Source: an uncultured Candidatus Saccharibacteria bacterium
GTDB taxonomy: Bacteria > Patescibacteriota > Doudnabacteria > UBA920
Assembly (NCBI GenBank): GCA_964453405.1
Contig: CAYVOF010000001.1
Span: 1,531 to 65,530, forward strand
Length of the DNA stretch: 64,000 bases
Direction: 5' to 3'
The notes beneath the pieces are model-generated. The model did no database searches. It was not told the origin of the DNA and saw nothing but the letters and a program-made list of their open reading frames with translations. Within the stretch, counting starts at the first letter, position 1. Each line of letters begins with the position of its first letter. Below, in pieces: positions 29,100 to 49,026 of the stretch. A program made the translations under genes and the position numbers.

Positions 29100-29103
29100 T
29101 TGC

Positions 29104-30792: not shown

Positions 30793-30870
30793 TGGTATTT
30801 TCTGGCGCTTTGGCGATAGTTATCAAGTTTGTTATAATAACGGCACTATCTATACATTTTTTAGGCAGTT

Positions 30871-31224
30871 ATGACTGAATTAACGCACAATTCGCACCAG
30901 TTTGCTAAGCTTGCTAAAGTCCTGTGGATCTTAGCAGTGGTTGTCTTTATTTTATCACTGGTAGTGATAATTATCAAAGTGTCGGTCAGCTCACCGGTAT
31001 CGGCTTTGCGTTACAATGTGATTTTAGGTGTAAGTGAAATCGGCAGCCGTTATAAGTTATTGCAATTGCCCTTAGCTGGATTTTTAATTGGCGTGGTAAA
31101 TTATGCGCTAGTTAGATACAATCGGACCAGTCAACAAATTTTGCCACTTCTTGCTGCGATGGTTACGGTCTCACTCAATATTATTTTGTTGCTAGCCGCA
31201 CTATTGTTATTCCAAGTTAACTAA
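30871..31224 (+). CDS. Small membrane protein (117 aa)
   Basis: Three predicted TM helices, lying immediately upstream of the GT2 gene. Confidence 0.35.
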   Translation: MTELTHNSHQFAKLAKVLWILAVVVFILSLVVIIIKVSVSSPVSALRYNVILGVSEIGSRYKLLQLPLAGFLIGVVNYALVRYNRTSQQILPLLAAMVTVSLNIILLLAALLLFQVN

Positions 31225-31238
31225 CTTCCTTTTAGGTT

Positions 31239-32909
31239 ATGAGTCAGCCAATTTTTAGAACTCGCACTCGCGTTGATCGTCTTTGGGAGATTATTCCAGG
31301 CCTGTCATTTTGGACAGTCTTTTTTGGCGCCATTTTGTTGTCTTACTACCGACCGGTCTGGGCAGCAATTTTTATTGTTTGTTTTGACTTGTACTGGGTA
31401 CTCAAGGCCTGTAATGTAGCTGTGCATTTAATCGCCAGCTATCGTCGGTTCCGTGTGTATGTGACATTAGATTGGCTTGAATATGTCGAATTACTCCCAC
31501 AAAGAGATAAATTAATCGCTCTATATAAATCACGTATTCCTCAAGCAACCCGTGCATTGGAACGCAAGTTTTATCGCCAACAAATTAAGCGTTTAAATCG
31601 CCCAATTGAGAATGAGGTTATTAACAGAAGCTACCGCGATTTTTATCATGTAATTGTGATTCCTTTTGTAGATGAAAGTTTTCAAATTTTAAGTTCTACT
31701 TTAGAAGCGTTGACCGAAGTACAATATCCAAAAGATCGTATGATGTTAATCTTAGCTTCCGAAGAGCGTGCTGGGGCAGCTGCGCAAGAAGTTGCTCAAC
31801 AAATACAAACAAAATTTGGTCCTATCTTTGCCAAGATGTTTGTTACGATTCACCCTGATGGATTGCCAGGAGAAATAAAAGGAAAGAGTGCTAATGCTAG
31901 TTACGCAGTATCGACAATCGTTCCAGAGTTAGAAGCAATGGGTATCAAGCAAGATGAAGTTTTGATTTCCAACTTTGATAGCGATACAATTGTGCATCCG
32001 CAATATTTTACTCGTGTGATGTATGAATTTTTAACTAACCACAAACCGTACCGTCGTAGTTATCAGCCAGTGTCAGTTTATAATAATAATATTTGGGATA
32101 GTCCGGCGTTTATTCGCGTGGTATCTGTATCAAACTCTTTCTGGCAATTTACAGAAAGCTCTCGACCGGATCGCTTGCGTACTTTTTCTTCTCACACAAT
32201 GACGCTCAAAGCCTTGGTAGAAATCGGTTACTGGAAAAAAGATTTAATCAACGAAGATGGTTATGTATTTTGGCAGTGCTATTTACATTATAAAGGTGAC
32301 TACGAAGTTGTGCCTTTGTTCGTTCCTGTTTCTTTGGATACTTGTCTCGCCGACACTTTTTGGCAAACTTTAAAAAATCAGTACAAGCAAAAAAAGCGTT
32401 GGGCGTATAACGTGGAATATTATCCGCATTTAGTTCCAGCATTATTAAAAAGCAAAGCGCCATTTTTTGATCGCATGTATAAGTTATTTCAATATATAGA
32501 AGGAAACTTTAACTGGGCAACAGCGAGTTTGTTAATTTCGATTTTGGGATGGCTGCCATTAATTATCGGTGGTGCAGAGTTTCAGCAAACTGTTGTGGCG
32601 TATAATTTACCAACCGCGACCCGAACATTAATGACCATTGCCACTGCGTTTTTAATCTTTAGCGTCTATATTAACTTAATTTTATTGCCGCCACGACCCA
32701 AAAAATACGGTTGGGGGAAGAGCGTTATGATGTATCTGCAGTGGTTTTTGGTACCAATTACTTCGGTAATATTTGGTAGTTTGCCTGCTATTGAAGCGCA
32801 GACTCGCTTAATGTTTGGTTGGTATTTGGAATTTTGGGTTACGCCTAAAGCTCGCAAAGGTGAAGTAACTGGCAAAGATATGCCAGAGATGAAGCAGATT
32901 CACCATTAG
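31239..32909 (+). CDS. Membrane-embedded family-2 glycosyltransferase (processive synthase-like)
   Basis: N-terminal TM helices, GT-A core with VIVIPFVDES and NFDSDTIVHP (DxD), and C-terminal TM bundle. Confidence 0.6.
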   Translation: MSQPIFRTRTRVDRLWEIIPGLSFWTVFFGAILLSYYRPVWAAIFIVCFDLYWVLKACNVAVHLIASYRRFRVYVTLDWLEYVELLPQRDKLIALYKSRIPQATRALERKFYRQQIKRLNRPIENEVINRSYRDFYHVIVIPFVDESFQILSSTLEALTEVQYPKDRMMLILASEERAGAAAQEVAQQIQTKFGPIFAKMFVTIHPDGLPGEIKGKSANASYAVSTIVPELEAMGIKQDEVLISNFDSDTIVHPQYFTRVMYEFLTNHKPYRRSYQPVSVYNNNIWDSPAFIRVVSVSNSFWQFTESSRPDRLRTFSSHTMTLKALVEIGYWKKDLINEDGYVFWQCYLHYKGDYEVVPLFVPVSLDTCLADTFWQTLKNQYKQKKRWAYNVEYYPHLVPALLKSKAPFFDRMYKLFQYIEGNFNWATASLLISILGWLPLIIGGAEFQQTVVAYNLPTATRTLMTIATAFLIFSVYINLILLPPRPKKYGWGKSVMMYLQWFLVPITSVIFGSLPAIEAQTRLMFGWYLEFWVTPKARKGEVTGKDMPEMKQIHH

Positions 32910-32925
32910 TTATAATTAAATTGCT

Positions 32926-33999
32926 ATGCCTTACTCTTCATTTTTTATTTTAGCTCTAGTGTTAGCAGCTGTGATTACACCTCTGGTTCGCCGCTTTGCT
33001 ACACGCTTTGGTTATATGGACATTCCGCGCCCACCGCGCAATCTCCATAACAAACCTGTGGCAAAATTGGGAGGTGTCGCGATTTATCTAGCGGTGGTTA
33101 TAGCGATTGGAGTTTTTTGGTTAACCGGTGGAATTGATTTTAATATTGTGCCGGAGCGGTTTATTTTAGCAATCATTTTGGGAGGTGCTGTTTTAGTTGC
33201 GAGTGGGTTAATCGATGATAAGTATGATTTGTCCGCTAAGTACTTGGCTATTTTTCCCATTGTCGCCGCTCTCGTAGTTGTATTTTCTGGAATTGGTATA
33301 GGAATTAAATTTTTATCTAATCCATTTGGTGATCCAATCAGTTTAGGTTTTGGTGTGATAGGAGTTCCTGCGTCAGGGATTTTTATTTTTTTGTGGTTAC
33401 TCGGAATGATGTTTACCACCAAGTTTTTGGATGGTCTTGATGGTCTTGTGGCTGGGATTGGTCTGATAGCTGGTTTAACTTTGTTTGCACTGTCATTAAG
33501 TTCACAAGTAAATCAACCTATTACTGCCACCTTGTGTATTATTTTAGTCGGCGCTTTAGCTGGTTATTTAATTTATGCTTTTAATCCGGCGTCGATATTT
33601 TTAGGCGAAGGCGGAAGCACTATAGTCGGATTTTTCTTGGGCGTATTTTCTGTTATCTTAGGTGCAAAAATTGCCACTGCATTATTAGTAATGGGGATTC
33701 CAATTTTAGATGTGGCTTGGGTGATTGCTCAGCGCGTTTGGTATCGCAAGAGTCCGTTCATCGGTGATCGCTTGCATCTTCATTTTAAATTATTAGACTT
33801 AGGGTTCACACAAAAACAAACTGCACTAGTGTTGTATGGAATCTCAGCCGTGTTTGGATTTACTGCAGTATTTTTACAAGCACGTGGCAAACTTGTCGCA
33901 CTAATTATTTTATTTGCCTTAATGGCTGGATTAATTCTTGGCGTAATTTTTGCATACCGTCGGCGCCAAGCCCACGATGCTGCGCAAGTGGGTGGATAA
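32926..33999 (+). CDS. Polyprenyl-phosphate N-acetylhexosamine-1-phosphate transferase (WecA/TagO/MraY family, GT4 PNPT)
   Basis: PRPPRNLHNKPVAKLGG motif, the LIDDKYDL aspartate-rich loop, and 10-11 TM helices. Confidence 0.8.
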   Translation: MPYSSFFILALVLAAVITPLVRRFATRFGYMDIPRPPRNLHNKPVAKLGGVAIYLAVVIAIGVFWLTGGIDFNIVPERFILAIILGGAVLVASGLIDDKYDLSAKYLAIFPIVAALVVVFSGIGIGIKFLSNPFGDPISLGFGVIGVPASGIFIFLWLLGMMFTTKFLDGLDGLVAGIGLIAGLTLFALSLSSQVNQPITATLCIILVGALAGYLIYAFNPASIFLGEGGSTIVGFFLGVFSVILGAKIATALLVMGIPILDVAWVIAQRVWYRKSPFIGDRLHLHFKLLDLGFTQKQTALVLYGISAVFGFTAVFLQARGKLVALIILFALMAGLILGVIFAYRRRQAHDAAQVGG

Positions 34000-35016: not shown

Positions 35017-36063
35017 ATGAAAATCTTAGAAGCCTTTTTATTTCGGATGATATTAAATGCATCCTTAAAGAAATTAATTTTAGTTGTTGTGGGTATATTC
35101 TTTTTTGGTGCTTTGATTATGCCTTTGGCCGAACCATCAGATAGTGCTCTTCAGCACTTTGGTAATTATTCATGGTGGTTTACTGTATCGATTACTGGTA
35201 CAGGTTACGGCGATATTGTTCCCGTAACCAGACTAGGACGTTTGATGGCTGGTATTGTTATGTGGACCGGTTATTTAGGGATTACGATGTACATTATCAG
35301 CAAGTTATTTACAATAGCTCATAGCGAACAGGAGAAAAGAATGAAAGGTTTGGTACCGTTAAATTTGAAGAATCATACTGTTATTTTTGGTAACAGAGGC
35401 GATGAGACTTTAAAGCTCGTTGAGTCTTTAAAGAATGATAAAGAAGCATCTCAAGAACCCGTGGTTCTTTGCTCGATGTTGACAACTGAGAATCCGTTTC
35501 CGGATGAGGTTGACTTCGTACATGGTGAACTTACTTCTGATGATGTAATGGTTCGCGCTTGTGTGGCGGACGCTGATCGAATTATTGTTCATTCTGATAC
35601 TGATCAAAAGTCAATCATTATTGCTAATGCTGTGAGGTATCATAATCCAACAGCGACAGTGGTCATCAATTTGGATAATCCCGACAACGAGGTTCACTTA
35701 CATCGAATTGGCGTTGGCAACAAAGTTGCTTGCGTTAAGCCTATGAATGTTCCGATGATTGTTCGGGAGATTACCAACCCAGGAATTACTCGACAGATTG
35801 AAGGCCTGCTAGGTAATACAGGACAGGAATTTTATTCCTTAACTGTTCCGTCTGGAGCACGCGAGCAAACCTTTGGAGAATTGGCCGCCAACTTATTATT
35901 GGATTGCCAATCTTTGTTGTATGCAGTTGTCCCAAATCCAAAAGCTGACACTGAGGCAGTCATTAATCCAGGTACTGAATTTGTTATCAGTCCTGGAATG
36001 AAAGTCTCATATATGGCAGTTGAGCGATTGAGCCCTCAGCAGATTTCTGAGGTGTTTAGTTAG
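35017..36063 (+). CDS. Potassium channel with C-terminal RCK/TrkA-N domain
   Basis: Two TM helices flank a pore loop with selectivity filter TGTGYGD. The RCK Rossmann fold starts VIFGNRGDETLKLVESL. Confidence 0.7.
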   Translation: MKILEAFLFRMILNASLKKLILVVVGIFFFGALIMPLAEPSDSALQHFGNYSWWFTVSITGTGYGDIVPVTRLGRLMAGIVMWTGYLGITMYIISKLFTIAHSEQEKRMKGLVPLNLKNHTVIFGNRGDETLKLVESLKNDKEASQEPVVLCSMLTTENPFPDEVDFVHGELTSDDVMVRACVADADRIIVHSDTDQKSIIIANAVRYHNPTATVVINLDNPDNEVHLHRIGVGNKVACVKPMNVPMIVREITNPGITRQIEGLLGNTGQEFYSLTVPSGAREQTFGELAANLLLDCQSLLYAVVPNPKADTEAVINPGTEFVISPGMKVSYMAVERLSPQQISEVFS

Positions 36064-36146: not shown

Positions 36147-36215
36147 CTGCAGTCAGAGTGCTAAATTGAAGACTCTGAAGATTTTGATAAAAATGTAATG
36201 GAGGCATTTGAATAT

Positions 36216-36779
36216 ATGAGATTAGTGTTATTTGCTTTGGTACCAGCTGTGGTGGTATTTGTCGTTACTTTACTTTTCGGTTTTTCCGAAACCGCAATAG
36301 TTATTTCTACCGGAGTGGGAGCTGTGCTGGGAGTAATCGTTGGGTTTGCGTCCACCCCAGACTATGATGACGATGAGTTATTTTCTCGCTCATCCAATCG
36401 AAGGAGTAACTATGGCGACGGTGTCGGGAGTGCACGAGGCTCAGGGCCTGACAGCCCTCCATCTCAGCGCACTGGGTCGCAGAAACGGCGTGATAACTCG
36501 GGTGTTGTTACAGACTCATCGTCACCATTCGATTATGGATATGGTGATTCTACTCACTCATCGTCACACACGGCTGACAGTCCTACTAGTCATGAGTCTG
36601 GCGGTCATTCTTTTGGTGGCGGCGGAGACTTTGGTGGCGGCGGAGCAGGTGGAAGTTTTGGTATCAGTCATTCTAGCAGCGCTTCCCATTCCGATACCAG
36701 TAGCCACTCTGACAGTGGTGGCAGCAGTGGAGGTGACAGTGGCGGAGGTGGTGACGGCGGGGGCGGAGGTGGTGATTAA
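36216..36779 (+). CDS. Membrane protein with a long Gly/Ser/Asp-rich disordered C-terminal tail
   Basis: GGAGG sits 11 nt upstream of ATG at 36216. Two TM helices, then low-complexity SHSSSASHSDTSSHSDSGGSSGGDSGGGGDGGGGGGD. Confidence 0.45.
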   Translation: MRLVLFALVPAVVVFVVTLLFGFSETAIVISTGVGAVLGVIVGFASTPDYDDDELFSRSSNRRSNYGDGVGSARGSGPDSPPSQRTGSQKRRDNSGVVTDSSSPFDYGYGDSTHSSSHTADSPTSHESGGHSFGGGGDFGGGGAGGSFGISHSSSASHSDTSSHSDSGGSSGGDSGGGGDGGGGGGD

Positions 36780-36839: not shown

Positions 36840-37271
36840 TTATTTTCCCGCCGGCTCAATCCCTAACTCTTTAAGCTTAGCTTGATACACCTCGTAATCT
36901 TCTAAGTAGTCGCTGCGATCGGGATTGTGTTTAGTAGAAGAGACCGCGAGCATTACTGAATTTGGTTCGTAGTCTTTAAAGCCGTGCCAGACGTAGTTGC
37001 CACAATATATGCCATCGCCCTGCTTCATGGGAATTTCTTCTTTGCCGTAACCTCGATCAATAATTGCGGTACAGCCGCCTGTGGCCATGACGAATAATTC
37101 CTTCTCTATATAATGACAGTGTTGGCCAGTATTACCGTTAAGGTCAGTTAAATAATACACACGTTTGATATCAAAATCTACATAAGTAGCAGCATCGATT
37201 TCGAAAAGTTCGTACAAATTGTCGCGACCCTTAACATGTTTAATCTCGTATTTTTTAAATTCTAGTTGCAT
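36840..37271 (-). CDS. WxcM/FdtA-like cupin (putative dTDP-6-deoxy-hex-4-ulose 3,4-ketoisomerase)
   Basis: 143-aa cupin with KRVYYLTDLNGNTGQHCHYIEKELFVMATGG, resembling the FdtA/WxcM C-terminal domain. Next to dTDP-sugar genes. Confidence 0.45.
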   Translation of the reverse strand: MQLEFKKYEIKHVKGRDNLYELFEIDAATYVDFDIKRVYYLTDLNGNTGQHCHYIEKELFVMATGGCTAIIDRGYGKEEIPMKQGDGIYCGNYVWHGFKDYEPNSVMLAVSSTKHNPDRSDYLEDYEVYQAKLKELGIEPAGK

Positions 37272-37332: not shown

Positions 37333-38178
37333 ATGGTTACAATAATTAAGCTTGAACCAATAAGTTTGGGTAAAATGTTTCGTGACTTGAAACGGTTTTT
37401 GAACAGGCAGATCAAAATTGGTGCTTTGGCCGGAAAATGGGGCATTGAACAAGAAAGACTTTTAAACCAATCCGCTATCCGTATGTATGCGCTAATGACA
37501 ATGATAGCTGCAGATATACTCCCTACTAAAAGTTCACCAATTTTTTTACACGTCCGTCATGACTATGAGAAAGTAGTAAAGGCAGCCGCTAATATTTATC
37601 ATTTGGGACAAAATCTTCCTATTTATCTGGAAGGCAGTGAAGGGCAACATCGTGATGACCCATTTCCTAATGGAAAACCTGGAGTTATTAACGGAGGTTT
37701 TAATTTCTGGTACAGACAGTTGAGAAGATTACATGTTCCCTCTGATGATATTATTCCGACAGGTCCATCTTATAATACCCCTGATGAGACTTTAGAGCTT
37801 TTAAAATTAGCTCGTTATAACAATTGGGATAGTGTTATTATCATTGGCAATTCATACCAAATGCTGCGCATTGTTCTTGGTACAATTCAATGGATGAAAA
37901 AAGAAAATTTTTGGTTGAAGTGCCATTTTGTGATGCCAAGCGGTTATGAATGGACTCAAAAAATGAGAGGTCCTCAAGATTCAGAAGAAGGTGATTTATT
38001 TGACCAATTTTGGATTGAGTACAAACGCATTATCGAATACCAGATCAAGGGTGACTTATGTTCACTTCAAGAAGCAATGAATTATCTGTGTTGGGGAAGA
38101 AATCTAATTAAAAATAATGTTCTTCCTGTAAACTTATTAAGTGAAGCTAGTGTAACCGAAACTAATTGGGTTTCGTAA
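37333..38178 (+). CDS. Hypothetical protein (281 aa), possibly a YdcF/DUF218-like fold
   Basis: ORF with AGGAGG RBS. The IIIGNSYQMLR segment faintly resembles DUF218. Not confidently assigned. Confidence 0.35.
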   Translation: MVTIIKLEPISLGKMFRDLKRFLNRQIKIGALAGKWGIEQERLLNQSAIRMYALMTMIAADILPTKSSPIFLHVRHDYEKVVKAAANIYHLGQNLPIYLEGSEGQHRDDPFPNGKPGVINGGFNFWYRQLRRLHVPSDDIIPTGPSYNTPDETLELLKLARYNNWDSVIIIGNSYQMLRIVLGTIQWMKKENFWLKCHFVMPSGYEWTQKMRGPQDSEEGDLFDQFWIEYKRIIEYQIKGDLCSLQEAMNYLCWGRNLIKNNVLPVNLLSEASVTETNWVS

Positions 38179-38325: not shown

Positions 38326-40437
38326 ATGAAAGTATTAGTAACCGGTGGAGCAGGATTTATCGGTAGCAACTTTGTTCGCTACTGGTTAAAAAATCACCCT
38401 CACGACACAGTCGTGAATTTTGATGCGCTTACTTATGCCGGAAACTTAGATAGCCTTCATGATTTAACAGTTAATCCCGAAACCAAAGATCGCTATAAAT
38501 TTATTCATGGCGATATTACCGATCCAATCGCAGTGCGCGAAGCAATGCGCGGTGTTGATTTAGTGGCGCACTTTGCGGCAAATTCTCACGTCGATCGCAG
38601 TATTGTTGAGCCGGGAAATTTTGTTAACACTAACGTGATGGGTACACAGGTTTTATTAGAAGAAGCTAAGAACGCAGGCGTGTGGCGTTTTCATCATGTG
38701 TCCACTGACGAAGTTTACGGAACACTGACTGTTGATGGTGATGAACTCTTTACCGAAGACACTAAGTACGCTCCCAACAATCCATACTCTGCTAGCAAGG
38801 CTGGTTCGGACATGGTCGTTCGTTCTTATTACAAGACTTACGATTTTCCTGCAACAATTACCAACACCTCCAACAACTTTGGTGCGTATCAGTTTCCAGA
38901 AAAATTTATCCCGTTGTGTATCACTCGTTTACTAGATGGCAAGAATATTCGGTTACATGGCAAAGGCGATCACATTCGTGATTGGTTGTTCGTCGAAGAT
39001 CATTGCCGTGCGATTGAACAAGTATTGCGCCGTGGCAAACTCGGCGAAGTTTATTTGGTTGCTGGTCGTGCGCAACTTTCTACTTTAGAAGTGGCACAAC
39101 GCATTTGTAAAGTCATGGGTGTAGGTGAAGATCGAATTGAATTCGTTCCTGATCGTCCAAGTAATGACAAAGCTTACAAACTCGACTGGAGCAAAATTAA
39201 TCGCGAACTTGGTTGGGAACCGTTGTTCAGTTTTGATGAATGGCTAGAACAAACTATCAATTGGTATCAAAATAACGAAGCTTGGTGGCGCCCACTAGTT
39301 AAACAGGGCTTTAGCTGGGGCAGTGTTGGTCACAAAGAAGAAGAAACAGAAGGTAAGGCTGTTAGTGTTCAGCAATCTGCTTACGGAAAAGCCAGTGAAG
39401 CTATTTCTAACTCGTCTGATTCACAACCAATTACTTTTTTAGAAAATTCCGGAATTCCAGCTAAACATCATTCAGATCAAAAACAGAAGGTATTAATTTT
39501 TGGTAATGGCCAGATGAGCATGCATTTCCGCAAGCATTACGAAGCACAAGGCGTGGAGGTGGTTATCGCCGCGTTGCCAGAAGTTAATGTTTTGAACGAG
39601 GTTCAAGTTGCAAATACTATTGATCAAGTTAAACCAACAGTGGTCTTTAACTGTACTGGCATGACCAATGTTGATTGGTGTGAAGCTAATCAAGAAGAAG
39701 CCTTAGCGGTTAATGTTCGTGGTGCCGAAAATATTGCTCGTGCTTGCATGCAAAAAAATGTTTACATGGTTCATTTTTCTACCGGCTATGTTCATGACTC
39801 TAAAGATATTACTGACGAACGCACAGAACTTGATCGCCCGAATCCAATTAATTTTTATGCACATACAAAAGCTAAAGCTGATGAGAGCTTAGCGCAGATG
39901 GCCAAGGTTGGGTTGAAGGTTTTGATTGTTCGAACTAATGCTTTGTTATCCGCCGTGCCACATCCAAAAAATGTGTTGGCCAAGATGACAATCTATCAAA
40001 AGTTTCACGATACTTATAGTTCAATGACAATCATTGAGGATCTCGTGGTTGCTACAGCTAAATTAGTTGAACAGCAAAAAACTGGTTTGTACAACGTTGT
40101 AAACCCTGGATTAACTTCACCGCTACGAATTGCCAACATGCTAAAAGAAATTATTAATCCTGACATGCAAATCGAACAACTCAGTAAGGCTGATGTCGAA
40201 AAAATGTATGCCGTGTTGCGACCAGATAGTATTTTATCGATTGCAAAATTGAACCGCGAAGGAATCCAGATGCCAGAAATTAATCAACGCTTACGCGGAA
40301 TAATTACTGTATTGCGTGATAATCTACGAAGCGAATCTGCTAAAGAGATTATGACCTTTACTGCTCAAGAAGATCAAAAGAAAAAAGACCTTAAGCAGGT
40401 TCAAGTAATCAATAACTTATTTAACAAAAACAGTTAA
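38326..40437 (+). CDS. Fusion protein: dTDP-glucose 4,6-dehydratase (RfbB/RmlB) N-terminal half plus dTDP-4-dehydrorhamnose reductase (RfbD/RmlD) C-terminal half
   Basis: Residues 1-330 carry MKVLVTGGAGFIGSN...YAGNL...SKAGSD (YxxxK) SDR motifs of RmlB. Residues about 385-650 carry KVLIFGNGQMSMHF...NCTGMTNVDWCE typical of RmlD. They are joined by a roughly 55-aa polar linker. Confidence 0.75.
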   Translation: MKVLVTGGAGFIGSNFVRYWLKNHPHDTVVNFDALTYAGNLDSLHDLTVNPETKDRYKFIHGDITDPIAVREAMRGVDLVAHFAANSHVDRSIVEPGNFVNTNVMGTQVLLEEAKNAGVWRFHHVSTDEVYGTLTVDGDELFTEDTKYAPNNPYSASKAGSDMVVRSYYKTYDFPATITNTSNNFGAYQFPEKFIPLCITRLLDGKNIRLHGKGDHIRDWLFVEDHCRAIEQVLRRGKLGEVYLVAGRAQLSTLEVAQRICKVMGVGEDRIEFVPDRPSNDKAYKLDWSKINRELGWEPLFSFDEWLEQTINWYQNNEAWWRPLVKQGFSWGSVGHKEEETEGKAVSVQQSAYGKASEAISNSSDSQPITFLENSGIPAKHHSDQKQKVLIFGNGQMSMHFRKHYEAQGVEVVIAALPEVNVLNEVQVANTIDQVKPTVVFNCTGMTNVDWCEANQEEALAVNVRGAENIARACMQKNVYMVHFSTGYVHDSKDITDERTELDRPNPINFYAHTKAKADESLAQMAKVGLKVLIVRTNALLSAVPHPKNVLAKMTIYQKFHDTYSSMTIIEDLVVATAKLVEQQKTGLYNVVNPGLTSPLRIANMLKEIINPDMQIEQLSKADVEKMYAVLRPDSILSIAKLNREGIQMPEINQRLRGIITVLRDNLRSESAKEIMTFTAQEDQKKKDLKQVQVINNLFNKNS

Positions 40438-41456
40438 TGGATAACGCGCCCAAAGTATCAATTAATATTTTAGGAACAAACGAAAAACATTTGCTAGAGC
40501 GAGCTATCTCTAGCATTTTTAAACAAGATTATCCAAATTACGAAGTACTATATATAGACAACGCTTCTTCGGATGGCTCAGAAGAATTTGTACGCCAGCG
40601 ATTTCCGCAAGTAAAAATTTTACAGACTGGTGAGAATCGCCATTATGGCCCAGCGCATAATAAAGGTTTTAAGGCAACAGATAGTGAGTTGATTTTGATT
40701 TTAAATGCCGATTTAGAATTGGCGGATAATTATTTATCCGAAGCTGTGGCAGCAATGATGCGCGATCCAAAAATTGCCGGAGTGAGTGGTAAAACTTTAC
40801 GACCAAAAAAGAATCCCAATGATCCAAACGAGCCGCAATTAATCGATAGCACAGGTTTAACTATTGATCGTATGCGTATTGTGCGCGATCGTGGTCAGTG
40901 GGAAGTGGATAAGGGTCAGTATGATACACCTGGAGAAGTGTTTGCGTTATGTGGTTCCAATCCTGTTTACCGCCGCGCCGCGCTTTTAGACGTTGCCATT
41001 GATGGCGAAATTTTAGACGAAGACATTACCGCGTTCTTTGATGACTCCGACTTAGGCTGGCGATTGCAACATCAAGGTTGGAAAGTTTGGTATCAGCCAA
41101 CTGCGATTTCTTATCACGAACGCGGGGTAGGACAGAGTCCAGGAGGTTATCGCCATTTGTTTGCTCTGGTTAAATATCGTCGTCGTTTTAGCTGGCGTAG
41201 CAAACAGCTCAGCTGGAAGAACAAAATGTACATTGTTATTAAGAATGATTTTGGTAAAACTCTGCGCCGCGATTGGCTGCGCATCGTCGCGCGCGAAATA
41301 GTCACTTTTGGTTTTATTTTAATTTTTGAAACCAAGACTTTAGCTGTTGTCCCAACTATTTTTAAACAGTTGCCAAACATCTGGCGCAAGCGCAAAATTA
41401 TTAAGCAGCGCAGTGTACTAGGCGACAACAATATCGACCGCTTCATTATCAAATAA
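40437..41456 (+). CDS. Family-2 glycosyltransferase (GT-A)
   Basis: SINILGTNEKHLL...YEVLYIDNASSDGS and DxD-like LNADLEL motifs. Start overlaps the preceding stop. Confidence 0.7.
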   Translation: MDNAPKVSINILGTNEKHLLERAISSIFKQDYPNYEVLYIDNASSDGSEEFVRQRFPQVKILQTGENRHYGPAHNKGFKATDSELILILNADLELADNYLSEAVAAMMRDPKIAGVSGKTLRPKKNPNDPNEPQLIDSTGLTIDRMRIVRDRGQWEVDKGQYDTPGEVFALCGSNPVYRRAALLDVAIDGEILDEDITAFFDDSDLGWRLQHQGWKVWYQPTAISYHERGVGQSPGGYRHLFALVKYRRRFSWRSKQLSWKNKMYIVIKNDFGKTLRRDWLRIVAREIVTFGFILIFETKTLAVVPTIFKQLPNIWRKRKIIKQRSVLGDNNIDRFIIK

Positions 41457-42456: not shown

Positions 42457-43980
42457 ATGCCACCTACAGTTAACGACGACGATAAAAAATTCCCTAATGC
42501 CACCGAAGGTATCGCTGGCTTGTTAAACATTACTGCGCACGGTAACACAGGTCCACGGCCAGTTGACCAAGAGACATCTGAAGAGACATCTGAAGAATCA
42601 GCTGAGTCAACCTCTATGTTCGCAGAAAAATCAGTTGCACCACCAAGCAATTTGCCATTTGCAGATCAATCCGAGGATGAACATATGGACGAACTTGTAG
42701 GTGAACCAGTTGCTCAACCAACAAATGAGCCTAAGGATATAGCCAGCATGTTAAGTAGTCAACCAGTAAAGACACCAGAAGGAAAAATTGAAACGGTTGC
42801 CCAGGATCCTCCAGTTGGTACTAACTTAGAATCTACAAAAATAGTTAACCGCGGTTTTAATGTCATAAAAAAAATCCTACCTTACGTAGTAATTTTTGCC
42901 ATTGCTATAGGTTTGTATTTTTTCTATTTTAATGACTTTAGCTTTACGAGCTTATTTAATTCCCAGACTCTTAAACTAGAAAGTATAACCAGTTCTAATA
43001 CTAATAAAGAATATGAACAGCTTAAAAAAGATGCTGCGGCGGATTACGCTGTTTGGCTTAATCAATTTTTTACTGATGTTAATGACGATAGTATTTCGAG
43101 CATGGACGCCGATGTATCTGGTAATGGTTTAACTAACTTTGAAAAATATTTACTCAACTTAAATCCGAAAGTTTATTCTACTCGTGGCGGAACAGGGGAT
43201 GGTCAGTCCGTACTAGATGGTGTTAATCCTTGGACAGGCAAAACTTTTACAGATAAACAAAAACAACTAGTAGAAAAATATCTAAACCCAGAACTAATTA
43301 GCAACCGAATTACTGCAGCGGCAATTACTCGAGGCGTAACTAAATATGCACAATATGTAAATCCAGACTCCCCTTACTACATTGATCCAGCAACTCTTCA
43401 ACAGGCTGGTAGTAGCACTCAAGCCGTAGTTACTCCTACTCAGATTTCTACCACAACTCCGGCGAATATTCCAACCAACCAACAACCAAGTAATACTGTT
43501 AGTAATTTGCGACCAGACGAATCTATTGATCAAAGTAAACCGGCAATGTTAGACATTCCCGCGAATAAAATTTCTGTACCGTTAACATGGACTCAGGACG
43601 TCAAAGATTTTGAAGTAGATTTAAAGAAGGGTGTAGTGCATTATCCAGGCACGGCAATGCTAGGTGAAGTTGGTACGAGTTATATTTCTGGACATTCAAG
43701 TGGTTACGCATGGGACAAGAGCCCTTATAAACAAATTTTCGCTGGCTTAGGCGGCGTTAAAGATGGAACTTCATTTTCTATCACTGCAACTCAAAAGAAC
43801 GGTAAGACTGTGAAGTATAATTATATTGTTGATCATCGAGGTGAATTTGCCGCTAATGACCAGGCTCAATTCTTAAGCACCTCTGACTCTGTAGTAGCTT
43901 TATCGACTTGCTGGCCTGTTGGGACTACGGCGCGTCGATTAGTTCTTTTTGGTAAACTAACTCAAACTGAAAGAAGCTAA
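42457..43980 (+). CDS. Sortase-like transpeptidase with a long acidic/ST-rich N-terminal region and one TM helix
   Basis: The C-terminal about 200 aa carry a His (YISGHSSGY), the TLxTC-like active-site motif VALSTCWP, and a downstream Arg (TTARRLVLF). Confidence 0.5.
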   Translation: MPPTVNDDDKKFPNATEGIAGLLNITAHGNTGPRPVDQETSEETSEESAESTSMFAEKSVAPPSNLPFADQSEDEHMDELVGEPVAQPTNEPKDIASMLSSQPVKTPEGKIETVAQDPPVGTNLESTKIVNRGFNVIKKILPYVVIFAIAIGLYFFYFNDFSFTSLFNSQTLKLESITSSNTNKEYEQLKKDAAADYAVWLNQFFTDVNDDSISSMDADVSGNGLTNFEKYLLNLNPKVYSTRGGTGDGQSVLDGVNPWTGKTFTDKQKQLVEKYLNPELISNRITAAAITRGVTKYAQYVNPDSPYYIDPATLQQAGSSTQAVVTPTQISTTTPANIPTNQQPSNTVSNLRPDESIDQSKPAMLDIPANKISVPLTWTQDVKDFEVDLKKGVVHYPGTAMLGEVGTSYISGHSSGYAWDKSPYKQIFAGLGGVKDGTSFSITATQKNGKTVKYNYIVDHRGEFAANDQAQFLSTSDSVVALSTCWPVGTTARRLVLFGKLTQTERS

Positions 43981-43985
43981 AATTT

Positions 43986-44100
43986 AAAAAAAAGACAGTA
44001 TATTATTTTCTTTCGACTTACATGTCTACGTCGCCTTCACTGCTTCCGCAGTGGGCGACTGTGACCTGATAGTCTCTAGAAAAACAATATGCTGTCTTTT
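43986..44100 (+). ncRNA. Second nested-palindrome structured element (candidate small RNA or complex terminator)
   Basis: Outer 15-nt inverted repeat AAAAGACAGTATATT / AATATGCTGTCTTTT encloses about 80 nt. The enclosed sequence contains the hairpin GTCGCC-tt-CACTGC-ttcc-GCAGTG-g-GGCGAC. Confidence 0.4.
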
Positions 44101-44159
44101 TGATATTAAACTTCTTTTATTTATGCCAATTTTTCAATAACGGCGTTTTGGCTTTAGCC

Positions 44160-44188
44160 TTGACAAAATGGCTATTTTGTGCTAATAT
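44160..44188 (+). promoter_or_regulatory. Promoter (TTGACA-17-TGcTAATAT) driving a roughly 200-nt leader upstream of the secreted cassette
   Basis: Consensus -35 and extended -10. The next start codon is at 44400. Confidence 0.5.
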
Positions 44189-44399
44189 ATAACTTCGGGT
44201 CAATAGTATTGATTTAATGATAAATAGTAGTTATTATTGAGTGTTAGATAGGTTTCTGCTCGTTTCCCCTGGTATTTTACTACAGTCAGGCAGGAAATGA
44301 GCGAAAACATGTCTGGCACCGCGTCAAACAGTTGTAATACTAACGCTGTACGCGCGTTACAATAGACATAGATCTTTAAAAAATTCCTAGGGAGGGAAT

Positions 44400-45086
44400 A
44401 TGAAAAAAATTGCTATTATTGTGTTATTTGTTGTTGCTTTTTGTTTTGTTTCGCCGAGTTCATCGTATTCCCAGGGTAAAGATCGTTTGAAGATCGAAGT
44501 CCGGGGATTTGATAACAACGTTCAAACACAGCTAATGGTTTCCAAGTTCATGGCCGACAACGCCGACTGGGCAATCGTAGTTGATGCCAATCCAAAATGG
44601 ATCATGAGAGTTACTCAACAATCTGGATATGGTCAAACTTGGACACAGGTTGACCAAAAAGCTCAAACCAGGAACAACATGGTTCGTTCGGGAAACCAAA
44701 CGATTCGCAGCGTTACGAGAAATAGTCCATTTGATAGCTGGTGGGGACGAACGATCAAACAGACTATCCGTCAAGCTGGTCAAAGTCAATTGCAACGCTT
44801 CGCTAAACCGGAGCGGTATCAATACCGAAAGGAGCAGTCGAGTGTAACGGTCGAAGTAATCGATCCGATCACTCGTGAAGTTGCTTCTAAGGCAATCGGC
44901 ATCACAACAATTACCGTCAAAACTTTGCGTATGTCCGGCTATGAACCGCAAACGTATTTAGTTGAAGGTGATCTTTCGTCGGTTGGTATCGAGGCGGGTG
45001 CAAACCTGTTCGGAACCTACCGACAGCTCTTGCAGTTGTCAGCGTTTATGAACGCACAACGGCCGGAAAACCATATCATACAATAG
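44400..45086 (+). CDS. Secreted protein of unknown function (228 aa)
   Basis: Strong GGGAGGG RBS and a signal peptide (MKKIAIIVLFVVAFCFVSPSSS). Composition is GC-richer than the surrounding sequence. Resemblance to CsgG-like lipoproteins is only very weak and unverified. Confidence 0.45.
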   Translation: MKKIAIIVLFVVAFCFVSPSSSYSQGKDRLKIEVRGFDNNVQTQLMVSKFMADNADWAIVVDANPKWIMRVTQQSGYGQTWTQVDQKAQTRNNMVRSGNQTIRSVTRNSPFDSWWGRTIKQTIRQAGQSQLQRFAKPERYQYRKEQSSVTVEVIDPITREVASKAIGITTITVKTLRMSGYEPQTYLVEGDLSSVGIEAGANLFGTYRQLLQLSAFMNAQRPENHIIQ

Positions 45087-45096
45087 GAGTACTGGA

Positions 45097-46188
45097 ATGA
45101 AAATATTTGCAAGTATGTTGGTGATTATGGCGGTGGTGTTTAGTACGCTGCTGCCTCCGTCAGTCTCTGCTGTGACTCCGTTCACACCACAGACGAGTTC
45201 TATTTTATCGGATCAGGTTTTTACACCTGAGCCGATGGGTCCATTTGTCGCTCTTGCGGCAGGCAATTCATCCTACTATAGAAATGATCAAGTTATCTTT
45301 CAGGGTAGTGTTGTACGATTGAGTTCGGTTGATCTTCACATCGGTGCAGATCCAGAAATACCAGGCGGCGATCAATCGGCGCCTGCGAGTGATGAAGTCG
45401 ATACTTATTTGACTGAGCCGATCATCGTTATTACTCGGGCTCGTAGCAGGAGGTTTATACTCGGTACAGTTAATCCGGTAATCAACGGCGTTAAAGTCGT
45501 TGTGCGGCGGATTAAGGCTACAGGTAAAATTATCGAAATCCTTAATTGTGGTAACTGGACCAGAGCACTCAACAGTGATTACACTTTTGAGTGTGATACT
45601 ACGGTAGGGCCTTGCGTTCCTGGAGCGATGGAGATCAAAACAACCGAAGAAGTTTCGCCTGACGGCAAAACCAAAACAGTTGTTACTGTGTCTAGTGATG
45701 GTTGTACGACCAAGGTTGATACTAGGGTTGTGACAACTGAAATCAAAGAGGTTTGTACTGAAAATTCTTGGCTCGATGTATTTGAGCATGGTGATGTGAA
45801 CGGTAAACTTGGAAAATCTTTTAAGGCCGACGAGGTTATCGGACAACTGCCGCAAGAAATTCAAGACAACATCCATAAATCTCTGGGAGGTAAGAATAAG
45901 ATCAATTATATCTTCGTTCAGAGAGGTGCGTGCGAGAGCCAAGCGAGCTTGATTAGAGTTCGTTGGTTCCGCAAAGATGGAGGTCTCTCAAAATGGGTTT
46001 ACTTCTTGGTTGGAATGGGTGTCGGGGTCGGCCTTGGTTACATTATAAGAGGGTCCCCTGACAATCCGGTTTTCCAAGCGGCAAAGGCCGTCACTAAGGG
46101 AAAGAGTGAACCGATTCGAAAAACTATTACAGGGTCTGGTGTCACTAAAGGTGTGGTCGGATCGCGGCCCATAAGCCCGACAAGGTAA
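45097..46188 (+). CDS. Secreted cysteine-rich protein with a C-terminal TM anchor and basic tail (363 aa), unknown function
   Basis: Signal peptide, about 8 Cys in the ectodomain, TM helix WVYFLVGMGVGVGLGYII, then a Lys/Arg-rich cytoplasmic tail. RBS AGGAG. Confidence 0.45.
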   Translation: MKIFASMLVIMAVVFSTLLPPSVSAVTPFTPQTSSILSDQVFTPEPMGPFVALAAGNSSYYRNDQVIFQGSVVRLSSVDLHIGADPEIPGGDQSAPASDEVDTYLTEPIIVITRARSRRFILGTVNPVINGVKVVVRRIKATGKIIEILNCGNWTRALNSDYTFECDTTVGPCVPGAMEIKTTEEVSPDGKTKTVVTVSSDGCTTKVDTRVVTTEIKEVCTENSWLDVFEHGDVNGKLGKSFKADEVIGQLPQEIQDNIHKSLGGKNKINYIFVQRGACESQASLIRVRWFRKDGGLSKWVYFLVGMGVGVGLGYIIRGSPDNPVFQAAKAVTKGKSEPIRKTITGSGVTKGVVGSRPISPTR

Positions 46189-46220
46189 TAGCATAATTAG
46201 CACTTTAATTAGCGTAATAC

Positions 46221-46255
46221 ACGGCTTCGAACATTTGTTTGAAGCCGTTTTTTTA
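46221..46255 (+). terminator. Rho-independent terminator after the secreted cassette
   Basis: ACGGCTTC...GAAGCCGT long hairpin followed by TTTTTTT. Confidence 0.6.
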
Positions 46256-46355
46256 TATCCAAAATTTGGTACAATTTGCCCGTTCAAAATGCTATAATGT
46301 AGGTAATAAATAAATAGGCTAAATAAGCCTAACTTTTTGAAATTAATCTATATAT

Positions 46356-47081
46356 ATGAATAAATTGTCCGTGGTGATTCCCGCTTATAATGAAGAAAAG
46401 CGTATTACCGAAACCTTGCAAAATATTGATGGCTATCTCGAAAAGCAGCCTTATGATTACGAAATTATTGTTGTAGTGAACAACACCAAAGATAAGACTT
46501 TTGAAGTCGTTCAGAATCTCGAAAAAACTACTGTGCAAAAAGCTGTGGCTATGAATTTAGTAGAGGGCGGCAAGGGTAACGCGGTGCGTCGTGGGATTTT
46601 AGAAAAAGCGACCGGCGACATTGTGATGTTTATGGATGCCGACAATGCTACACCGATTTCGGAAATAGAAAAGTTCTTGCCATTCTTTGAACAAGGGTAC
46701 GATGTGGTAGTTGGTTCTCGCTACACTAACCCTGATTTGGTTAAAGTGCACCAGCCTTTTTACAGAATCATTTTATCGCGTATGAGCAACTTGTTGATTC
46801 AATTTTTAGCCGTTCCAGGAATTAAAGACACTCAACTTGGTTTTAAAGCTTTTACTGCTTCAGCTGCAAAAGATATTTTCCCAAAAGTAAAAATTTTACG
46901 CTGGGGCTTTGACATGGAAGTTTTGACTCTTGCCTTGGCGCATGGTTTTAAAATTAAAGAAGTGGGTGTGTCTTGGACCGAACATGGTGGCGGTCACGTT
47001 CCTCTCAAGGCTTACTTAGAATCATTGATCGATTTGTTTAAGATCAAATTCCGCTCCATTGCTGGGCAGTATAAGAAGTAG
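46356..47081 (+). CDS. Polyprenyl-phosphate glycosyltransferase (DPM1/GtrB-like GT2)
   Basis: LSVVIPAYNEEKRI...YEIIVVVNNTKDKT...FMDADNATP motifs of Dpm1-like soluble GT2 enzymes. Confidence 0.75.
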   Translation: MNKLSVVIPAYNEEKRITETLQNIDGYLEKQPYDYEIIVVVNNTKDKTFEVVQNLEKTTVQKAVAMNLVEGGKGNAVRRGILEKATGDIVMFMDADNATPISEIEKFLPFFEQGYDVVVGSRYTNPDLVKVHQPFYRIILSRMSNLLIQFLAVPGIKDTQLGFKAFTASAAKDIFPKVKILRWGFDMEVLTLALAHGFKIKEVGVSWTEHGGGHVPLKAYLESLIDLFKIKFRSIAGQYKK

Positions 47082-47139
47082 TCAATTATTTGAAACTTTT
47101 CCTCAGTTTAAGCGTCTAAGTTAATGACAACTAACTCCA

Positions 47140-49026
47140 ATGTTATTAAATCTTAACCAGAGAATTTATCAATTTTTAATTCTGCCGTTATTCGCGGCAG
47201 TTTTAGTCTTGGTCCCAGCTCCATCTGCAGTTTTAGCTCAAGCTAGCTCTGTGGCTACAGTAAACTTTTCCTATACTACAAAGCTAAATTCTCCTAGTGC
47301 CCTGACTCAGCTAGGGCAGGTGGGTACTAATATTAGTCATCAATTTGAATTTTCAAAAAGCGCAGAGTTTTTAAATATATATACATTTCAATCCTCTCTT
47401 CCGATTGAACAGTTGCGCAAGCAACTCGTGGGCCCGCAGTCAAATCAAGTTAAGTATTTGGATTATGACTTAGGTGTTCAAGCCGGAGCGCTCACTGTAA
47501 CGCAATTACCAAATGATCCAAGTTTTACCACCAACGCTTCAAATATAGACAAGCAGTGGGGTTTGGTTAAGGCTGGGTTTGTAGAAGGTTGGGAAAAAAC
47601 CAAAGGTGACACTAAGGTTGTTGTAGCCGTAGTTGATACAGGTATAGATCGTACTCATGAAGATATTACTGCAACTAGATTTGTTGATGGCTATAATGTT
47701 CTAACTTCTAAAGTGATCTCGCAGTTTTCTAACTCGGATGATAATGGTCATGGGACTCTGATTTCTGGTGTTGTAGGAGCAGTTTCAAATAATGGAGTTG
47801 GTATTGCAGGAACTAACTGGAGCATAACTTTAATGCCAATCAAAGCATTAAACTCATCGGGCACTGGTTCGGCTAGCCAGATTTCGGAAGGAATAGTGTG
47901 GGCCACAGATCACGGCGCTAATATAATAAACTTATCTTTGGGTGGCGTTGGGTTTGCTCATGATACAACTTTATCTAACGCTATTACTTATGCTTTTGAA
48001 AAGAATGTAATTATTGTTGCTGCGGCAGGTAATGATGTTGCGATTACTGGCGGTAATTTGGATACTGAACCAGTCTTTCCAATTTGTAATGATAATGGAA
48101 AGAATATGGTAATTGGAGTTTCTGCTTCTGACAGCAATGATCTCAAGCCCGACTTTGCTAATTATGGGAAGGCTTGCGTCGATATAGTTGCACCTGGAAA
48201 GCGAATTTTATCTACTATAAACCATGACCCAGCAACAGGAAATAGTGCGCCAGATTCATACGCCTATGCCTCTGGGACGTCCTTGTCAGTTCCATATGTA
48301 AGTGGCCAAGCAGCTTTATTAAAGTCTTTATATCCATTTGCTTCTAATCGCCAGATTCGTGATCGAATTATTTCTACCGCAGATAATATTGATAATTTTA
48401 ACACCACCAAGTGTGGTGGCAGTACTTGTAAAGGCTTGCTCGGTAGTGGTCGAATAAACGTGGCAAACAGTTTAAGAGATATTATACCAACTCTTGTCGA
48501 TGGAGATGTGGTTCAAGTTAATAACAGTGGTGATTGGTATTTAATAAACGGTGGTAAGCGGCAAATCATCTCGCCTTTTGTACGCAGTCAACGGTTTGTA
48601 GGAGTTACCCCTAAACAAGTTTTTTACTCCGAAATAGAAAGATTCTCCGAAGGATCTTTTGCTGAGCCTAAGGATGGTACCTTAGTTAAGTCGCCGGACA
48701 ATAGCACGGTTTACTTTATGAGTAAGGGTTTGCGGTTGCCAGTGACTTATCAGATTTTTCAGTTATATCATTTTGACTTTAAAAACGTCTTCACTTTATC
48801 ACCAGCCGAAGTTAACTCTTGGGTGATGGGTGGATTTTTAACTCCTCCAGAAGGCACTTTGGTGCGCACTCCAAAAAATCAAACTGTATATTGGGTTGTG
48901 GGGCAAGTTCTTCACCCAATCAATTACAAGTTTTATATAGACAGAGGCTTAAATATTTTTTCAGTAATTTACGTACCCGACAATGATTTAACTAAATTAC
49001 CAACAGGGGAGAGCTACACCTTATAA
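47140..49026 (+). CDS. Secreted subtilisin-like serine protease (S8) with about three C-terminal ~65-aa repeat modules
   Basis: Signal peptide and a catalytic triad in VAVVDTGIDRTHED (Asp), HGTLISGVVGA (His) and GTSLSVPYVSGQAALL (Ser). The C-terminal repeats contain G-T-L-V-K/R-x-P-x-N-x-T-V-Y. Confidence 0.8.
   Translation: MLLNLNQRIYQFLILPLFAAVLVLVPAPSAVLAQASSVATVNFSYTTKLNSPSALTQLGQVGTNISHQFEFSKSAEFLNIYTFQSSLPIEQLRKQLVGPQSNQVKYLDYDLGVQAGALTVTQLPNDPSFTTNASNIDKQWGLVKAGFVEGWEKTKGDTKVVVAVVDTGIDRTHEDITATRFVDGYNVLTSKVISQFSNSDDNGHGTLISGVVGAVSNNGVGIAGTNWSITLMPIKALNSSGTGSASQISEGIVWATDHGANIINLSLGGVGFAHDTTLSNAITYAFEKNVIIVAAAGNDVAITGGNLDTEPVFPICNDNGKNMVIGVSASDSNDLKPDFANYGKACVDIVAPGKRILSTINHDPATGNSAPDSYAYASGTSLSVPYVSGQAALLKSLYPFASNRQIRDRIISTADNIDNFNTTKCGGSTCKGLLGSGRINVANSLRDIIPTLVDGDVVQVNNSGDWYLINGGKRQIISPFVRSQRFVGVTPKQVFYSEIERFSEGSFAEPKDGTLVKSPDNSTVYFMSKGLRLPVTYQIFQLYHFDFKNVFTLSPAEVNSWVMGGFLTPPEGTLVRTPKNQTVYWVVGQVLHPINYKFYIDRGLNIFSVIYVPDNDLTKLPTGESYTL

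Follow-up and report, generated by a model that had tools for sequence, protein, structure and literature searches.

An RmlB-NRS/ER fusion with a derived active site and a cupin neighbour points to a variant RHM-type rhamnose synthase in Candidatus Saccharibacteria

Which steps of a 6-deoxyhexose pathway can be carried out by a protein that joins a sugar-nucleotide dehydratase to a reductase, and which enzyme sets the stereochemistry in between? This question is raised by a 64,000-nucleotide stretch of DNA from an uncultured Candidatus Saccharibacteria bacterium (GenBank assembly GCA_964453405.1, contig CAYVOF010000001.1, positions 1,531 to 65,530), which we call the window. Its plus strand holds, at 38326-40437, a gene that an earlier reading of the sequence alone took for a fusion of RmlB and RmlD, the first and last enzymes of the deoxythymidine diphosphate (dTDP)-L-rhamnose branch. 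That reading had recognised neither rmlA nor rmlC in the window, and a tblastn search of the 64 kb with RmlA and RmlC domains from fused homologues agreed with it, giving a best E value of 0.66. We found that the protein has the architecture of a two-domain 6-deoxyhexose synthase like plant RHM, with a C-terminal half of NRS/ER lineage, and we are highly confident of both its architecture and its lineage. For its function we propose a composite model, to which we give a probability of roughly 45%: a fusion of dehydratase and terminal reductase, with a neighbouring cupin doing the intervening rearrangement in trans and dTDP-L-rhamnose as the probable product.

The gene and its parts are listed here.
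38326-40437, plus strand: whole fusion gene, a single uninterrupted open reading frame (ORF) with an ATG start, 703 residues plus stop
38326-39309, plus strand: N-half, residues 1-328, RmlB-type nucleoside diphosphate (NDP)-glucose 4,6-dehydratase, from TIGR01181, Foldseek and key residues
39310-39483, plus strand: linker, residues 329-386 (58 residues), polar and disordered, from model confidence, variable length and substitution rates
39484-40320, plus strand: C-half, residues 387-665, short-chain dehydrogenase/reductase (SDR) domain of NRS/ER (UGER) lineage, from PF04321, motifs and tree
40321-40434, plus strand: C-terminal tail, residues 666-703, one long predicted helix, from the AlphaFold2 model and conservation within the clade

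The encoded protein is 100% identical to protein P0001, which lies on a 117-kb NCBI contig, and Pfam places GDP_Man_Dehyd/Epimerase at residues 3-309 and RmlD_sub_bind (PF04321) at residues 388-661. Taken alone, the N-half scores 431.6 bits against TIGR01181, the dTDP-glucose 4,6-dehydratase equivalog (cut-off 365.1), and is thus an RmlB by the equivalog criterion. It carries the NAD motif GGAGFIGS (GxxGxxG type) at 7-14 and the catalytic residues T127-D128-E129 and Y154-xxx-K158, which are invariant or nearly so across the dehydratase alignment. Its model has the extended-SDR dehydratase fold: Foldseek template modelling (TM) scores, taken on the target, are 0.92-0.96 to DesIV and PH0414, with a root-mean-square deviation (rmsd) of 1.2-1.6 Å, and TM is 0.85-0.89 to RmlB (rmsd 2.0-2.9 Å), the three matches being 42-50% identical to it in sequence.

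Could a frameshift or a faulty assembly within the linker simply have run two neighbouring genes together? The linker is of low complexity and poorly conserved, as would suit such an accident, and the earlier reading had itself pointed to about 39300-39480 as the place to look for one; a single uninterrupted ORF runs across it. The same in-frame fusion recurs, at 70-82% identity and with total lengths of 679-724 residues, in some 20 clusters of proteins drawn from NCBI, JGI, ENA and Logan assemblies, and also in at least nine independently assembled loci; all of L001-L009 and L033 keep one open frame across both halves. Across these four data sources the linker varies in length and yet keeps small conserved motifs within it, and more distant relatives at 40-61% identity, described below as Cys-type, are fused as well. 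The related loci were found by searching genome contigs with an alignment of homologues, and their ±10-kb flanks were readable. Codon comparisons, taken where synonymous divergence was not saturated, put the ratio of nonsynonymous to synonymous substitution (dN/dS) at 0.02-0.04 in the N-half and at about 0.12-0.13 in the C-half, low values which mean that both halves are kept by selection; the linker gave 0.3-0.47. Recurrence and selection on both halves together rule out a join, to which we would give hardly any chance, and the single polypeptide linking a 4,6-dehydratase to a reductase-family domain stands on the ORF, the Pfam matches and its recurrence in about 20 clusters. The close relatives among species-representative genomes are Candidatus Saccharibacteria metagenome-assembled genomes, and a metagenome scan for related loci yielded one 1-kb fragment and one distant locus. 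The fusion had also been called uncommon in bacteria. It is indeed rare among clustered matches, since clustering at 50% collapses the whole clade into a single representative and few other two-domain representatives stand among the best 150 of 93,473 matches; the architecture nevertheless recurs across Patescibacteria.

The C-half tells a different story from the one its Pfam name implies. Alone it scores 129.1 bits against the rmlD equivalog TIGR01214, well below the cut-off of 224.05, and within the full-length fusion it reaches 187.6 bits. Its best sequence match in the PDB is the Arabidopsis NRS/ER 4qqr, at 104 bits, while RmlDs score at most 76 bits. A motif table spanning about 130 homologous domains separates two types.
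NRS/ER type (4qqr, Mimivirus L780, free-standing bacterial proteins and many fusions): NVDWCE, [ST][ST]GC[IV][FY], YSxTK, RNxxxK[IL], NS[MILV]T
RmlD type (canonical RmlDs): xVDxxE, STDYVF, YGxxK, NFVxTM, GxPT

The fusion has the NRS/ER form of each motif bar one residue (NVDWCE at 448-453, YAHTK at 511-515, KNVLAKM, and SSMT at 565-568), and its sole element of the RmlD motifs is the Tyr of STDY. The Rossmann motif G393-x-G395-xx-S398, the catalytic residues T486, Y511 and K515, and K553 are all retained. A neighbour-joining tree of 58 domains (269 columns, 200 bootstraps) splits NRS/ER from RmlD in 200 of 200 replicates, with the fusion on the NRS/ER side. Within that side the fusion clade is nested amid sequences that bear Cys where it bears Tyr: the clade itself is supported by 197/200, and its union with the Cys-bearing P0019 by 200/200. 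Fold comparison matches the C-half to RmlD and NRS/ER alike (E of about 1e-17 to 1e-19, TM of about 0.8), with TM of 0.84-0.85 to L780 (7jid). By these sequence criteria the C-half belongs with plant RHM and Mimivirus L780 in the NRS/ER (UGER) lineage and is no RmlD orthologue, so that the fitting comparison for the whole protein is plant RHM instead of RmlB plus RmlD. Of the identity first proposed, the RmlB half thus holds, the N-half lying above its cut-off, and the RmlD half does not. The annotation of the protein in current databases, "dTDP-glucose 4,6-dehydratase", covers just half of it.

An ordinary RmlB-RmlD fusion, serving the canonical four-enzyme pathway alongside an rmlA and an rmlC located in another part of the genome, was weighed at this point. 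RmlD_sub_bind does match the C-half, TIGR01214 is its best NCBIfam match, the residues at 488 and 540 (Tyr and Leu) fit the RmlD consensus, and real RmlB-RmlD fusions with the STDYVF motif occur elsewhere (P0067, P0114). We nevertheless consider this explanation improbable, given that the C-half alone falls far short of the rmlD cut-off, that its remaining motifs and its phylogeny lead to the NRS/ER lineage, that neither the 64-kb window nor any related locus holds a PF00908-type gene, and that it would leave the cupin described below unexplained. A catalytically dead regulatory C-half like MAT2B, which is among the PDB matches, was ruled out: the catalytic triad and the nucleotide motif are intact and dN/dS is about 0.12. 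The earlier reading had raised a C-half devoid of the catalytic residues as a case that would undo it, and Thr486, Tyr511 and Lys515 are all kept.

The one residue that departs from the NRS/ER motifs lies in the active site. NRS/ER and L780 perform 3,5-epimerisation and 4-reduction within one active site (PMC9614988; PMC3220709), and Cys108 and Lys175 of L780 are the acid/base pair of epimerisation, confirmed by mutagenesis according to a review (PMC9614988). An HMMER alignment, corrected for three additional residues at the N-terminus of the PDB chain, maps Cys108 to Tyr488 and Lys175 to Lys553 of the fusion.
39787-39789, plus strand: codon of Tyr488, aligned with L780 Cys108 and NRS/ER Cys115 in the alignment to 7jid and 4qqr

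This residue, two positions after the catalytic Thr (Thr+2), is Tyr in 21 of 21 clade members, hereafter the Tyr clade, and Cys in 89 of 89 other NRS/ER-type sequences, hereafter Cys-type. Four alignment columns alone discriminate the two sets, and two of them, 488 and 538, are invariant in the Cys-type.
Column 488: clade Y (100%); Cys-type C (100%); RmlD-type consensus Y (84%)
Column 538: clade N (100%); Cys-type R (100%); RmlD-type consensus A (53%)
Column 540: clade L (100%); Cys-type P (84%); RmlD-type consensus L (63%)
Column 624: clade V (100%); Cys-type L (83%); RmlD-type consensus F (28%)

Y488 and L540 thus match the RmlD consensus. Since the sister protein P0019 (61% identical, grouped with the clade at full bootstrap support) still has Cys, Tyr is the derived state. 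The most divergent member of the Tyr clade, P0018 (L033:10001-12058, from one Logan assembly), has in addition exchanged Lys553 for Asn (KNILANM), as would fit a relaxed constraint on the second residue of the epimerisation pair. From the replacement of Cys by Tyr488 and of Arg by Asn538 we infer that the C-half of the Tyr clade has lost its epimerisation machinery. It shares with NRS/ER (UER1, 4qqr) and L780 the fold, NVDWCE, YxxTK, the Lys175 equivalent and the NSMT motif; it differs from them in having Tyr488 for Cys108/115, Asn538 for the invariant Arg and the Rossmann form GxGxxS in place of GxxGxxG, and in being fused where they are free-standing. It has acquired the RmlD-type Tyr at Thr+2 and probably performs the RmlD reaction, although it stands outside the RmlD family.

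If epimerisation has been lost from the C-half, the rearrangement falls to another enzyme, and a candidate is encoded next to the fusion.
36840-37271, minus strand: FdtA/QdtA-family cupin (PF05523) of 143 residues, divergent from the fusion, proposed partner enzyme

This cupin matches PF05523 at E = 3.4e-19 and 69.4 bits (gathering threshold 23), and its best PDB match is FdtA, 2pa7, whose catalytic His49, His51 and His95 are all conserved in it, the cupin's H51-C-H53 and W95-H96 aligning to these histidines; its first description as FdtA/WxcM-like was therefore correct. The subfamily to which it belongs in Patescibacteria has the motifs TGQHCH, YVGNYVWHGFKDF and SSTNYNPDRSDY, with an invariant Cys between two catalytic histidines (HCH) where FdtA has HAH. 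Each Tyr-clade fusion with readable flanks (the window, L001/2, L003, L007, L008, L009 and L033) has the cupin 0.1-2.5 kb upstream on the opposite strand, and eight further fusion and cupin clusters pair off by the identical size of their longest contig. All 13 Cys-type loci lack a cupin. No aminotransferase domain was found near the cupin in the window or in L001, L003, L025-L030 and L033. Known members of the FdtA/QdtA type feed a pyridoxal phosphate-dependent aminotransferase (FdtB, QdtB). The neighbouring cupin thus resembles FdtA, QdtA and Tyl1a in size and catalytic histidines, but differs from them in that neither its surroundings nor six related loci hold an aminotransferase, and in that its subfamily elsewhere lies between an RmlB gene and one for an RmlD-type reductase.

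These loci in other lineages are the most informative evidence that we have, because the Tyr clade alone represents a single event in syntenic genomes. Cupins 50-56% identical to that of the window stand directly after RmlB in six of six loci, from Magasanikbacteria-like and other Patescibacteria. A reductase comes next in three of the six, overlapping the cupin gene in two (L027, L028).
L027, 6864-9270: RmlB-cupin-RmlD operon
L028, 6913-9267: RmlB-cupin-RmlD operon
L026, 6923-11688: RmlB-cupin-RmlD operon

The operons are flanked by several glycosyltransferase family 2 (GT2) genes. Their reductases are canonical RmlDs (STDYVFDG) that score 258, 229 and 216 bits against TIGR01214, at or near its cut-off of 224, and none of the six RmlB-cupin loci holds RmlC (PF00908) or an aminotransferase. 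The cupin in these operons occupies the position of RmlC in an rml operon, which suggests that some members of the Candidate Phyla Radiation (CPR) use an FdtA-family cupin as a substitute for RmlC. We place no reliance on the grouping of these RmlDs with the reductase domains of RmlB-RmlC-RmlD fusions, which had a bootstrap of about 49%.

The composite model can now be set out. The N-half would convert dTDP-glucose to dTDP-4-keto-6-deoxy-D-glucose; dTDP-glucose is a more likely substrate than uridine diphosphate (UDP)-glucose, a hint being the RmlA-like genes beside the Cys-type relatives. The FdtA-like cupin would then perform the stereochemical rearrangement in trans in place of RmlC, the C-half would act as the terminal NADPH-dependent 4-ketoreductase, and the product would feed two translationally coupled downstream GT2s in a cell-wall polysaccharide locus. 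The product is most likely dTDP-L-rhamnose: the partner reductases of the cupin elsewhere are bona fide RmlDs, few substitutions set the clade apart from its rhamnose-making relatives, and rhamnose is reported in the cell wall of one Saccharibacteria strain, TM7x (PMC10768705). The idea of an unusual pathway, put forward when the fusion was first noted, gains support in this respect, the change from Cys to Tyr and the adjoining cupin being unique to the clade. The derived active site and the linked cupin suggest non-orthologous replacement of RmlC. More tentatively, we suggest a history in which an FdtA-family cupin of Patescibacteria displaced RmlC as the enzyme of C3/C5 stereochemistry and, after its acquisition by one Saccharibacteria lineage, the epimerase/reductase of that lineage reverted to a reductase only.

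Several observations weigh against this model. The Tyr clade represents one evolutionary event in closely syntenic genomes, and the co-occurrences of fusion and cupin within it are not independent. The neighbour-joining tree rests on simple distances. The scan for RmlA and RmlC was confined to the 64-kb window and the ±10-kb flanks of its relatives, which leaves some room for the ordinary four-enzyme pathway considered above. Lys553, the equivalent of L780 Lys175, is kept in 20 of the 21 clade members. The bacterial SDR RubS3, which likewise carries Tyr at Thr+2, epimerises C3 (PMC8152690), and Tyr there is therefore no proof that epimerase activity was lost. Finally, the cupin has all three histidines of FdtA. 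To our knowledge, which is in keeping with the names of PDB entries, all characterised PF05523 enzymes are 3,4-ketoisomerases and none is an epimerase, so that the family would gain a new activity if this member acted like RmlC.

The retained Lys and the example of RubS3 raise the possibility that the fusion is a self-sufficient RHM-like synthase, its C-half still bifunctional with Tyr488 as acid/base and the cupin belonging to a separate branch or serving as an auxiliary. RubS3/RblE, the synthase of TDP-D-antiarose, is a bacterial SDR 3-epimerase/4-reductase that makes 6-deoxy-D-gulose (PMC8152690); it combines epimerisation with C4 reduction and has Thr-x-Tyr at the position equivalent to T486-G-Y488 of the fusion, a likeness of motif position. 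It differs from the fusion in being free-standing, actinobacterial and part of secondary metabolism. The NRS/ER descent of the C-half would also suit self-sufficiency, as would the invariance of Tyr488, which suggests a need for it, and the Cys-type fused relatives L004, L031 and L032, which work without any cupin. However, a neutral swap is difficult to reconcile with a Cys that is universal in the other 89 sequences and whose L780 equivalent is catalytic by mutagenesis. Moreover, an invariant Arg was lost simultaneously, the residue change coincides exactly with the gain of the cupin, and the cupin has no aminotransferase or other partner with which to complete a separate branch. We regard a self-sufficient synthase as unlikely.

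The conserved histidines and the known chemistry of the cupin family point instead to another 6-deoxyhexose, in which case the cupin would be a true 3,4-ketoisomerase and the C-half would reduce the resulting 3-keto sugar or an unepimerised 4-keto sugar. Candidate products include D-fucose, D-quinovose, 6-deoxy-D-gulose, 6-deoxy-D-allose or similar sugars. The score of the cupin, above the threshold of the FdtA family, and the alteration of the C-half active site at two formerly invariant positions both fit this proposal, which corresponds to the second suggestion made when the fusion was first noted, namely a reductase half acting on a keto intermediate other than dTDP-4-dehydro-rhamnose. It fits poorly with the pairing of the same cupin subfamily elsewhere with reductases at or near the rmlD cut-off; RmlD-type reductases are known to act on the 4-keto sugar after its 3,5-epimerisation. 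A switch of regiochemistry from C4 to C3 would be expected to need more than the four diagnostic substitutions. RubS3, a C4-keto SDR reductase, does not accept the product of FdtA (PMC8152690), and the rhamnose reported in a Saccharibacteria cell wall also speaks against it. We therefore think a product other than rhamnose unlikely, and keep to the composite model with dTDP-L-rhamnose.

The Cys-type relatives show what a two-domain pathway may achieve without a cupin. They are 35-44% identical and occur in Saccharibacteria, Paceibacteria, Minisyncoccota and other Patescibacteria; RmlB and the Cys-type NRS/ER gene are adjacent in L010-L022 and fused in P0019 and P0021-P0040. Nine of the 13 Cys-type loci that could be read have an RmlA-like gene no more than a few kb away, and this nucleotidyltransferase scores 272 bits as RmlA against 91 bits as GalU. 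No Cys-type locus contains a PF00908-type RmlC, an absence that a bifunctional NRS/ER domain explains. Judged by gene content, three activities housed in two domains seem to be enough for these bacteria to make dTDP-rhamnose, with no RmlC. Triple fusions of RmlB, a Cys-type NRS/ER domain and an RmlA-like domain, of about 880-940 residues, also exist (P0027, P0029, P0032, P0034, P0048 and others) and are predicted to carry the whole NDP-rhamnose pathway on one polypeptide without RmlC. Another set of triple fusions, of 829-881 residues, joins RmlB, RmlC (PF00908) and RmlD (P0041, P0043, P0049); P0043 reads STGYVF at the Thr+2 motif. These other rml fusions, many of them from Patescibacteria, likewise join consecutive steps of NDP-rhamnose synthesis, but keep a Cys-type domain or a real RmlC, and the combination of an NRS/ER domain bearing Tyr with an unfused cupin is found only in the clade of the window. 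Two further kinds of long homologue were noted. P0060, P0065, P0071, P0083 and others, RmlB homologues of about 660-700 residues with intein and homing-endonuclease domains (PF14890, PF14528), are intein-containing dTDP-glucose dehydratases. P0097 and P0115, from JGI metagenomes and about 1000 residues long, carry two NRS/ER-type domains in tandem after a single dehydratase domain and are probably eukaryotic, since the tree places them with plant NRS/ER.

Did the fusion come from eukaryotes? Arabidopsis RHM1/2/3, the UDP-L-rhamnose synthases, likewise place an N-terminal dehydratase and a C-terminal NRS/ER-type domain on one polypeptide, and the Cys-type bacterial relatives share with them the lack of need for a separate RmlC. 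The protein of the window differs from plant RHM in being bacterial, in having an RmlB equivalog as its N-half, in probably using a dTDP-linked sugar, in its long and disordered linker, and in its Tyr for the epimerisation Cys together with a cupin partner. Its N-half shares 45-57% identity with bacterial RmlBs but 39.6% with a plant-RHM-like protein, and the tree of C-domains separates a clade of eukaryotes and L780 from the Patescibacteria group that holds the fusion (184/200). The greater nearness to bacterial RmlBs and the separate clades indicate that the fusion arose within Patescibacteria, independently of the plant one. RHM-type fusions and the UGER pathway have been reported only in eukaryotes and Mimivirus (PMC3220709; bioRxiv 10.1101/854612), and our literature search found no publication on a bacterial RHM-type fusion. 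Surveys place the origin of the fusion in early eukaryotes, and an independent construction in Patescibacteria from a bacterial RmlB changes that picture.

The remaining parts of the protein also deserve description. The polar linker had been put at about 55 residues, close to the measured 58, and is rich in S, E, G, K and A. AlphaFold gives it a predicted local distance difference test score (pLDDT) of 31-53, with both flanking domains above 90, and the predicted TM score of 0.51 for the fusion means that the domains have no fixed mutual orientation. Two motifs within the linker are kept among homologues, even in P0019: [GS][AS]YG at residues 351-354 (block 39376-39393, residues 351-356) and P[IV]TFLE at residues 368-373 (39427-39444). 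One possible role for them is docking, either of the two domains to each other or of a partner. The tail forms a helix over residues 670-701 in the AlphaFold2 model, with confidence falling along the helix; it is conserved in P0002, P0005, P0009 and P0014 and rich in Lys and Gln (…EDQKKKDLKQVQVINNLFNK). Free-standing NRS/ER proteins lack it, and it might mediate oligomerisation or membrane association.

Downstream of the fusion lie the two glycosyltransferase genes of the composite model.
40437-41456, plus strand: GT2 glycosyltransferase (PF00535), also directly downstream in L001, L003, L004 and L033
41473-42387, plus strand: second GT2 glycosyltransferase (PF00535), part of the same conserved block

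The TAA stop of the fusion overlaps the ATG of the first GT2 at 40437, and this enzyme is a likely consumer of the NDP-sugar. The second has a weak, sub-threshold match to the rhamnosyltransferase model TIGR01556 (47.8 bits, cut-off 200), and NCBIfam gave no sugar-specific assignment for the downstream GT2s or for a WecA-like gene. The surroundings (27540-33999, 42457-49026 and 51450-52895) encode two PMT_2/ArnT-like transferases, a large GT2_3 membrane protein, a WecA-like glycosyltransferase of family 4 (GT4), three GT2s, a sortase-domain protein, a subtilase of family S8 and a Wzx/MurJ-like flippase. Their gene order is conserved in L001, L003 and L033, and the locus is consistent with a region for a cell-wall glycopolymer or polysaccharide and surface proteins. 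Between an L21 gene and the fusion, the window has a TrkA-N/Ion_trans_2 potassium-channel gene (35017-36063), an ORF with no family match (36198-36779) and a weakly DUF218-like ORF (37333-38178); in L001 and L033 the genes on either side of the cupin adjoin it directly. The genes around the cupin-fusion pair thus show local indel variation around a conserved pair. ARAGORN found no tRNA gene in the whole 64 kb.

Taken together, these results add a new bacterial variant to the RHM-type rhamnose synthases, and not categorically new chemistry. The clade with Tyr488, Asn538 and a cupin neighbour offers a testable case of a two-activity active site dismantled once a partner enzyme arrives. If the proposed displacement of RmlC is true, it would add a new activity to a family known only as 3,4-ketoisomerases and would provide a natural experiment in the gain and loss of an activity inside one active site. 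The RmlB-cupin-RmlD operons suggest that calls of a "complete rhamnose pathway" in CPR genomes may rest on a non-orthologous enzyme. Enzymes of rhamnose synthesis are drug targets in Gram-positive pathogens, and wall polymers that contain rhamnose probably play a central part in the surface biology of Saccharibacteria as episymbionts.

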